The position numbers and the translations under genes are program-made. Positions 1,386 through 5,108 of a stretch of 5,108 nucleotides of DNA are shown in pieces. Under the pieces are notes generated by a model. The model saw nothing but the letters and a program-made list of their open reading frames with translations, had not been told where the DNA came from and did not search any database. How positions within the stretch are numbered: the stretch's first letter is position 1; every line of letters starts with the position of its first letter. Source of the DNA: a virus (taxonomy: Duplodnaviria; Heunggongvirae; Uroviricota; Caudoviricetes); IMG/VR virus record IMGVR_UViG_2663762648_000011; one strand, given 5' to 3'.

Positions 1386-1505
1386 CGGAACGGCGCGCCA
1401 TCATCCGGCATCACCACATTACTGCGGTTATAGGTCCACACCTTATCCGACGGTCGGTCCTGCACGAACGTCAGCGTCTGCCCGTTCCATACCGGCATAC
1501 AGCGC
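1383..1505 (-). repeat. 123-bp inverted duplicate of window positions 731..853 (an internal J segment in reverse orientation)
   Basis: The reverse complement of 1383..1505 is identical to 731..853 (gcgctgtatgccggtatggaacgggcagacgctgacg...gcgccgttccgcta). On the minus strand it encodes the J residues MPVWNGQTLTFVQDRPSDKVWTYNRSNVVMPDDGAPFRYS (seen in the minus ORF 1148..1498). It is bounded by the end of copy A and a single N at 1506. Confidence 0.9.
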
Positions 1506-1506
1506 N
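1506..1506. other. Single ambiguous base (N) at the junction between the inverted fragment and J segment B
   Basis: An n is present in the sequence; homology switches from rc(731..) to 918.. exactly here. Confidence 0.95.
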
Positions 1507-2556
<1,050 letters not shown>

Positions 2557-2648
2557 NNNNNNNNNNNNNNNNNNNNNNNNNNNNNNNNNNNNNNNNNNNN
2601 NNNNNNNNNNNNNNNNNNNNNNNNNNNNNNNNNNNNNNNNNNNNNNNN
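2557..2648. other. Assembly gap (92 N)
   Basis: Uninterrupted run of n. Flanking sequences are homologous J segments, so the true junction sequence is unknown. Confidence 0.97.
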
Positions 2649-3447
<799 letters not shown>

Positions 3448-3458
3448 NNNNNNNNNNN
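3448..3458. other. Assembly gap (11 N); reading frame changes across it
   Basis: Run of n. The J frame is frame 1 upstream and frame 0 downstream; the frame-1 ORF from the track terminates at 3480 just after the gap. Confidence 0.97.
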
Positions 3459-5108
3459 AACAGCCAGACCCGGACGCTGACGCTCGACCGTGAAATCACG
3501 CTGCCATCCTCCGGTACCATGCTGATAAGCCTGGTTGACGGAAGTGGCAATCCGGTCAGCGTGGAGGTTCAGTCCGTCACCGACGGCGTGAAGGTGAAAG
3601 TGAGCCGTGTTCCTGACGGCGTTGCTGAATACAGCGTGTGGGGGCTGAAGCTGCCGACGTTGCGCCAGCGCCTGTTCCGCTGTGTGAGTATCCGTGAGAA
3701 CGATGACGGCACGTATGCCATCACTGCCGTGCAGCATGTACCGGAAAAAGAAGCCATCGTGGATAACGGGGCGCACTTTGACGGCGACCAGAGCGGCACG
3801 GTGAATGGTGTCACGCCGCCAGCGGTGCAGCACCTGACTGCCGAAGTCACCGCAGACAGCGGGGAATATCAGGTGCTGGCGCGCTGGGACACGCCGAAGG
3901 TGGTGAAGGGGGTGAGCTTTATGCTTCGCCTGACCGTGGCAGCGGATGACGGCAGTGAGCGGCTGGTCAGCACGGCCCGGACGACGGAAACCACATACCG
4001 CTTCACGCAACTGGCGCTGGGACGGTACACGCTGACAGTCCGGGCGGTAAATGCCTGGGGACAGCAGGGCGATCCGGCGTCGGTATCGTTCAGGATTGCC
4101 GCACCGGTAGCACCGTCGCGGATTGAGCTGACGCCGGGCTATTTTCAGATAACTGCCACGCCGCATCTTGCGGTTTATGATCCGACGGTACAGTTTGAGT
4201 TCTGGTTCTCGGAAACGCGGATTACCGATATCAGGCAGGTTGAAACCACAGCCCGCTACCTTGGCGCGGGGCTGTACTGGATAGCCGCCAGTATCAATAT
4301 CAAACCGGGCCATGATTATTACTTTTATATCCGCAGTGTGAACACCGTTGGCAAATCGGCATTCGTGGAGGCCGTCGGTCGGGCGAGCGATGATGCGGAA
4401 GGTTACCTGGATTTTTTCAAAGGCAAGATAACCGAATCCCATCTCGGTAAAGAGCTGCTGGAAAAAGTTGATCTGACGGAGGATAACGCCAGCAGACTGG
4501 ATGAGTTTTCGAAAGAGTGGAAGGACGCTAACGATAAATGGAATGCGATGTGGGGCGTCAAAATTGAGCAGACCAAAGACGGCAAACATTATGTCGCGGG
4601 TATTGGCCTCAGCATGGAGGACACGGAGGAAGGCAAGCTGAGCCAGTTTCTGGTTGCCGCCAATCGTATCGCGTTTATTGACCCGGCAAACGGGAATGAA
4701 ACGCCGATGTTTGTGGCGCAGGGCAACCAGATATTCATGAACGACGTGTTCCTGAAGCGCCTGACAGCCCCCGCCATTACCAGCGGTGGCAGTCCTCCGG
4801 TATTTTCCCTGACATCAGACGGAAAGCTGACCGCTAAAAATGCGGATATCAGTGGTAGTGTGAATGCGAACTCAGGAACGCTCAACAATGTCACGATTAA
4901 CCAGAACTGTACGATTAAGGGCATGCTGGAGGCGACCCAGGTCAGAGGGGATTTCGTTAAAGCTGTATCAAAAGCCTTCCCGAAAAAAGTCGGTACGTGG
5001 GGTAACACGGAAACACCAGACGGTACGGTTACAGTCACCATCAGCGATGATCATAACTTTGACCGCCAGATTATTATTCCGCCCATTATTTTTAACGGTA
5101 TAGCGTAT
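3459..5108 (+). CDS. J: Host-specificity protein J, fragment D (third allele); covers the fibronectin-III-like module and the distal part of the protein; 3' end lies beyond the window
   Basis: Frame 0 is open for all 550 codons from 3459 to the window end (translated by hand, no stop). It is absent from the ORF track only because no stop lies in the window. Translation [38 protein letters not shown]...[229 protein letters not shown]... matches the distal half of lambda J as I remember it. Confidence 0.88.

Follow-up and report, generated by a model that had tools for sequence, protein, structure and literature searches.

Probable phage 434-type receptor-binding module at the 3′ end of a partial lambdoid J gene

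A reading frame at the 3′ end of the window (the whole stretch of DNA analysed here, 5,108 bases) resembles the J protein of phage lambda over most of its length and then departs from it. This departure raises the question of whether the divergent end is new or belongs to a J type that has already been described, and which host receptor it would serve.

Segment D and the other J fragments of the window

The frame, called segment D, starts at 3459 and runs through 550 codons with no stop, and its translation ends in exactly the peptide that was quoted in the first-pass annotation. In the numbering of phage 434 it corresponds to J codons 499-1048, or bases 1495-3144 of the 3414 bases of the gene. 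Its limits are a run of N at the left and the window end at the right. The body of the segment has the following features:

3459..5108, plus strand: segment D, a partial lambdoid J gene (tip attachment protein, central tail fibre), seen as an open frame of 550 codons
3792..4418, plus strand: two Ig-like or fibronectin-III-like domains (FNIII-1 and FNIII-2 in the lambda structure), from Pfam
4500..4880, plus strand: tail tip fibre shaft, composed of an alpha-helical shaft and the beta-prism "central straight fibre", from PF09327

Pfam domains were found in the order PF24421, PF24489, PF09327 and PF12421, all above the curated cut-offs, and the last of them was cut by the window end. PF24421 (Ig_J) covered residues 112-216 of segment D (E = 3e-43) and PF24489 (Ig_J_second) covered residues 218-320 (E = 5e-40); the names FNIII-1 and FNIII-2 for these domains of J are those of the lambda structure paper (PMC11101478). 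PF09327 (Phage_Tail_Tip) covered residues 348-474 (E = 6e-34) and ended at window position 4880. The shaft at 4500-4880 was the last portion conserved with lambda, and a match by sequence to residues 832-1043 of lambda J in the PDB (8iyk, 8xcj) spanned it and continued onward. At the DNA level, segment D was 99.1% identical to gpJ of E. coli 14EC007, 98.0% to J of mEp460_ev081, 96.1% to J of phage 434 and 93.4% to lambda J (over 1476 bases). By its domain order and the high identity of its conserved body, segment D is a lambda-like J. The window has J fragments only. In the related loci of 434, ev081 and 14EC007, the tail genes M, L, K and I are upstream of J, and lom and the side tail fibre genes are downstream. 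At the 14EC007 locus (NZ_CP024131, 4507-8557), gpJ is without its C-terminus and is followed by an IS1A insertion and then by lom and the side tail fibre genes.

Segment D is one of four pieces of J in the window, which are split by N runs at 1506, 2557-2648 and 3448-3458:

1-1385: piece A, J bases 308-1689
1507-2556: piece B, J bases 1225-2274
2649-3447: piece C, J bases 1476-2274
3459-5108: piece D, J bases 1495-3144

The pieces were 94-97% identical among themselves. The first 214 bases of C were identical to the end of A, and A and C are one allele. The window is thus not a true tandem array: faulty scaffolding has piled up at least three J alleles (A/C, B and D), which come either from a host that carries several lambdoid prophages or from a sample of mixed origin. 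Positions 1386-1505 hold a 120-base inverted copy of 731-850, joined straight to the end of A. The inverted join produces a false TAG stop at 1383-1385 and, with it, an apparent 446-codon ORF at 45-1385. This inverted duplicate (1383-1505) looks like an assembly artefact. No match to the junction at 1371-1406 was found in collections of genome, viral and metagenome contigs, and none to the partial product of segment A in an exact-sequence look-up. Pieces B and C both end at J base 2274 (window 2556 and 3447; ...GATATCAGGCAG), whereas D reads through. The break at this base is probably a branch point of the assembly graph where the alleles diverge.

In a search of 5,426 complete E. coli genomes, in which each query had more than 12,000 J-matching places, the best matches were 98.0% for A, 98.7% for B and 99.1% for D. 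The lack of closer matches suggests that the three are unusually mosaic alleles or a collapsed multi-copy consensus. Given the evident mis-joins and no match above 99.1%, segment D upstream of 4857 may be a natural mosaic or a collapsed consensus. An antisense ORF of 150 codons (minus strand, 5041 to 4589) was rejected as spurious, because the same frame has two stops in the viable phage 434.

Divergence from lambda J and identity with phage 434

The first-pass annotation had claimed that segment D tracks lambda J to about 4880 and diverges thereafter. Alignment with lambda J (NC_001416) bore this out. Residues 1-475 (3459-4883) were 95.2% identical to lambda (452/475), whereas the identity of residues 476-550 (4884-5108) was 52.9% (37/70, with five further gapped positions), and two indels were present from 4884 on. 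The difference between the conserved and divergent protein counts was highly significant (Fisher's exact test, P = 6.7e-19). The annotation had chosen an identity to lambda of more than 95% over this region as the outcome that would speak against its claim, and the value of 52.9% was far from it. The DNA showed the same change, from 94.2% identity over 3459-4884 to 55.8% over 4885-5108. Dense mismatches to lambda begin at 4874, 4877 and 4885, and a smaller cluster occurs earlier, at 4787-4817. The switch from conserved to type-specific sequence therefore lies at about 4874-4885, directly after the end of the shaft in Pfam (4880). Two features describe the sequence around and beyond the switch:

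4857..5108, plus strand: stretch 100% identical in DNA to J of phage 434 and to the h434 allele, with no mismatch after 4856
4885..4964, plus strand: diverged junction that links the shaft to the receptor-binding domain, from alignments and the model

It had also been claimed that the overall residue pattern is retained despite the divergence. This was found to be so: the motif NCTI.G.L ... VTVT.DDH.FDRQI consists of columns that are invariant or near-invariant among 20 C-terminal fragments of J from several receptor-binding types. Across all J types, the junction at 4885-4964 keeps the framework residues N, V, T, C, I, G, L, GD and VK. When the homologue P0003 was modelled as a monomer (see below), the junction formed no regular secondary structure. 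The G+C content dropped from 57.0% before the switch to 46.0% in the divergent stretch, and this drop is common to 434. The DNA identity to lambda of only 55.8%, together with the lower G+C content shared with 434, points to an old exchanged cassette rather than to drift by point mutation.

The divergent stretch matched phage 434 in every base. All 224 bases at 4885-5108 were identical to those of phage 434 (OL657226) and of the laboratory hybrid "lambda h434 imm21" (OM418627). The last mismatch to 434 was at 4856, and the 252 bases thereafter were identical. In the protein, 75 of the 75 residues of the divergent part (J codons about 974-1048) agreed with 434 J, and the 475-residue body was 96.6% identical to it. 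J of phage 434 (UMO75286.1), or h434 of lambda h434 imm21, has the same domain order as segment D; the 64 base differences between 434 J and segment D are scattered and all lie upstream of 4857. The best overall matches to segment D, J of mEp460_ev081 (LR597641) and gpJ of 14EC007 (NZ_CP024131), both have a 434-type tail. Within 4885-5108, however, ev081 J differs from the window at 5019 (Asp to Asn), and 14EC007 gpJ differs at 5019 and 5024.

Judged by sequence identity, the divergent stretch is the classical h434 host-range allele of J and not a new variant. This allele was sequenced in PMC9119081. It has been known since the 1950s, is widespread in E. coli and is structurally understood by homology. 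The first-pass annotation had treated the stretch as an unidentified variant. In this it was right that the divergence is real, but the stretch itself is the known 434 allele and is common in E. coli.

Visible and unseen parts of the receptor-binding domain

According to the first-pass annotation, the receptor-binding domain was not visible in the window. Our results differ on this point. PF12421 (Ig_GpJ_C, "C-terminal receptor binding domain") matched residues 503-548 of segment D with a score of 41.5 bits (cut-off 26.2), and 47 of its 135 profile positions (1-47) are present, starting at window position 4965. The part of the domain inside the window was described as two features:

4965..5108, plus strand: first third of the C-terminal receptor-binding domain, an Ig-like beta-sandwich, from PF12421
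4983..5018, plus strand: first variable loop or hairpin of the receptor-binding domain, 12 residues, from indel-rich alignment columns

The domain boundaries were taken from Pfam and from the model, as the main text of the structure papers does not give residue boundaries for the receptor-binding domain. The loop at 4983-5018 is the longest variable part in the window and the most indel-rich one. It is two residues longer than that of lambda and up to six residues longer than those of other J types, and is probably a receptor-contact loop. In published AlphaFold3 models, the third loop of 434 is predicted to touch OmpC and is far longer than its phi330 counterpart, residues 918-921 (PMC12502783). 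Going by sequence order, the loop at 4983-5018 is probably this third, OmpC-touching loop of 434.

Structural modelling, which the first-pass annotation had called for, was done on the homologue P0003 and not on the truncated sequence of the window. P0003 is a complete tail fragment of the 434/ev081 type with 186 residues. It was chosen since a large-database search with the last 109 residues gave only fragments of less than 200 residues. The AlphaFold2 model of P0003 (20-sequence alignment) had a mean pLDDT of 80.7, with a beta-sandwich from about residue 47. The strands 47-52, 56-58, 65-67, 69-75 and 83-94 and the start of 96-99 fall inside the window, and seven more lie beyond it. The model matched solved gpJ tails in Foldseek: the lambda gpJ tail (8xck, E = 7e-17; 8xcj, E = 4e-16) at 44% identity, and A8 gpJ bound to OmpC (9wcb, E = 6e-16) or alone (9wca, E = 1e-15) at 48-50% identity. 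As modelled, the 434/ev081-type tail shares the receptor-binding fold of gpJ, an Ig-like beta-sandwich (8xck, 9wcb).

The unseen part of the domain is smaller than had been thought. J of phage 434 is 1,137 residues long and the last codon visible here is 1048, which leaves 89 residues missing and not the approximately 130 given in the first-pass annotation. To what extent these residues can be predicted may be judged from related genomes. The visible 224-base stretch was present at an identity of at least 99% in 927 of the 5,426 complete E. coli genomes, about a sixth of them; it was found at 95% or more in 1,221 records of complete genomes, and 2,100 genomes had it at 80% or more. The entire 434 tail reached an identity of at least 95% in 1,212 such records, and the gap between this number and the 1,221 for the visible part is less than 1%. 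Among phage records, 23 had the visible 224 bases and 23 had the full 494-base 434 tail at this level of identity (at least 95%), and the phage records listed for both queries carried the full tail at 97.4-100%. These counts (23 and 23; 1,221 and 1,212) are matching totals rather than locus-by-locus comparisons; being nearly equal, they imply that the visible part predicts a 434-type remainder well. The remainder beyond the window is very probably of the 434 type. The common form of this tail in E. coli is 97-99% identical to 434 and differs from it in few residues, e.g. KIFQKGNQGAG against KVFHKGNQRAG.

Receptor use and alternative readings

Phage 434 uses OmpC, and lambda with the J gene of 434 binds OmpC instead of LamB, as described in PMC11101478 and in a passage of PMC3509688 that cites Fuerst and Bingham (1978). 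The first-pass annotation had held that this region sets receptor specificity and that its divergence signals another receptor. The identity of the stretch with the 434 allele bears this out and suggests OmpC as that receptor. We consider it highly likely that segment D is the partial J gene of a lambdoid prophage and that its 3′ end carries a receptor-binding module of the phage 434 type (h434) and not that of lambda. We further infer that OmpC is used, that the rest of the gene is intact and that the prophage is functional. Receptor use is extrapolated, since most of the variable loops are encoded by the final 89 codons, beyond the window end. Engineered J chimeras showed that related tails discriminate between OmpC variants (bioRxiv 10.1101/2022.09.30.509847), and the fine specificity of the 434-type tail in this locus is therefore uncertain.

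Two solved J tails can be compared with segment D. Lambda J (NP_040600.1; 8xck, 8xcj, 8iyk) belongs to the same family and has the same architecture and receptor-binding fold, but its variable loops are different and its receptor is LamB. The A8 gpJ chimera (9wca, 9wcb) was solved with OmpC of E. coli EDL933. It is an OmpC-binding J tail with the shared fold and, for the final 217 residues encoded in the window, gave the best sequence match in the PDB (E = 1.6e-113); however, it represents a different tail type (48-50% identical to P0003, as above) and its first loop is shorter. The solved complex of A8 gpJ and OmpC shows that OmpC is indeed bound by J tails with this fold. Because the A8 and 434 tails are distinct and both use OmpC, OmpC binding is found in at least two lineages of J tails. 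Being spread over distinct lineages, OmpC use is not transferable from similarity to A8 alone. Both entries were released in January 2026 and show A8 gpJ 713, an engineered chimera of lambda J, in its free form (9wca) and in complex with OmpC (9wcb). The A8 tail matches the tail type of another homologue, P0026, which is only 53% identical to P0003.

The J trimer of lambda has hub domains and two FNIII domains, a helical shaft and a beta-prism fibre, and a receptor-binding domain that inserts four bottom loops into LamB. On binding, the three receptor-binding domains move apart, the fibre is twisted, the shaft flips and the tail tip opens (PMC11101478). A similar course may be proposed here. 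J proteins have in common a conserved body, made up of the hub, FNIII, shaft and fibre parts named above, and they swap the last roughly 160 codons as a cassette through recombination. From the identity with 434, the trimeric J tip would dock on the trimeric porin OmpC and not on LamB. By analogy with the solved complexes of lambda J with LamB and of A8 gpJ with OmpC, this docking would push the three receptor-binding domains apart and twist the fibre, and the tail tip would open so that DNA can be ejected.

Some other readings of the locus should be considered. As the window has N runs at three places, J fragments that overlap and a 120-base duplicate in inverted orientation, it might be suspected that the lambda-like body and the divergent tail were joined in silico. 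However, the same order of body and 434-type tail is found without a break in lambda h434 imm21 and mEp460_ev081 as well as in phage 434 and many complete genomes, and segment D aligns to those sequences across the junction with no gap. A join made in silico is effectively refuted by these colinear matches in 434 and in complete genomes, and we give it almost no credence. Recombination inside the domain is another matter, as the window ends within it and the J gene is strongly mosaic, with patchy mismatches to lambda, 434, ev081 and 14EC007. The visible third could be of the 434 type while the 89 residues beyond the window come from another type of J, in which case the receptor would be something other than OmpC or a different OmpC variant. 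Alternatively, these residues might bear substitutions that retarget the tail to another porin or to one particular variant of OmpC. The difference between 1,221 and 1,212 records leaves space for a few unlinked cases. The totals nevertheless agree, with 23 and 23 phages and less than 1% between the E. coli counts, and the phage records listed for both queries carry the full 434 tail at 97.4% or more. A remainder unlike that of 434, or one retargeted by substitution, is thus very improbable. If it were true, it would be a natural case of host-range change via recombination inside the receptor-binding domain.

A third reading concerns function and leaves the identity of the sequence undisputed. 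The 434-type allele might sit in a cryptic or decayed prophage, with J broken just past the window and no present role in adsorption. The gpJ of 14EC007, 99.1% identical to segment D, is annotated as a pseudogene, with IS1A inserted 156 bases past the position of the window end. Since the nearest copy in a complete genome is a pseudogene cut by IS1A, the function of the J of segment D cannot be assumed. The source also has at least three J alleles, and polylysogens commonly carry defective prophages. Against this, all the 550 visible codons are open, and the end of the contig is more simply explained by assembly breakage at a repeat, as at the ends of the other segments. We regard a defective remnant as a possibility of some substance but rather doubtful.

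This finding is correct but ordinary, and it makes no open question testable. Its value is mainly in annotation, as a J fragment can be assigned to the 434 (OmpC) host-range type instead of the lambda (LamB) type. Such an assignment helps to predict the host strains of prophages and to pick natural J tails for lambda-based delivery particles. The locus is an example of the well-known, cassette-like exchange of J tails at the point where the shaft gives way to the receptor-binding domain.
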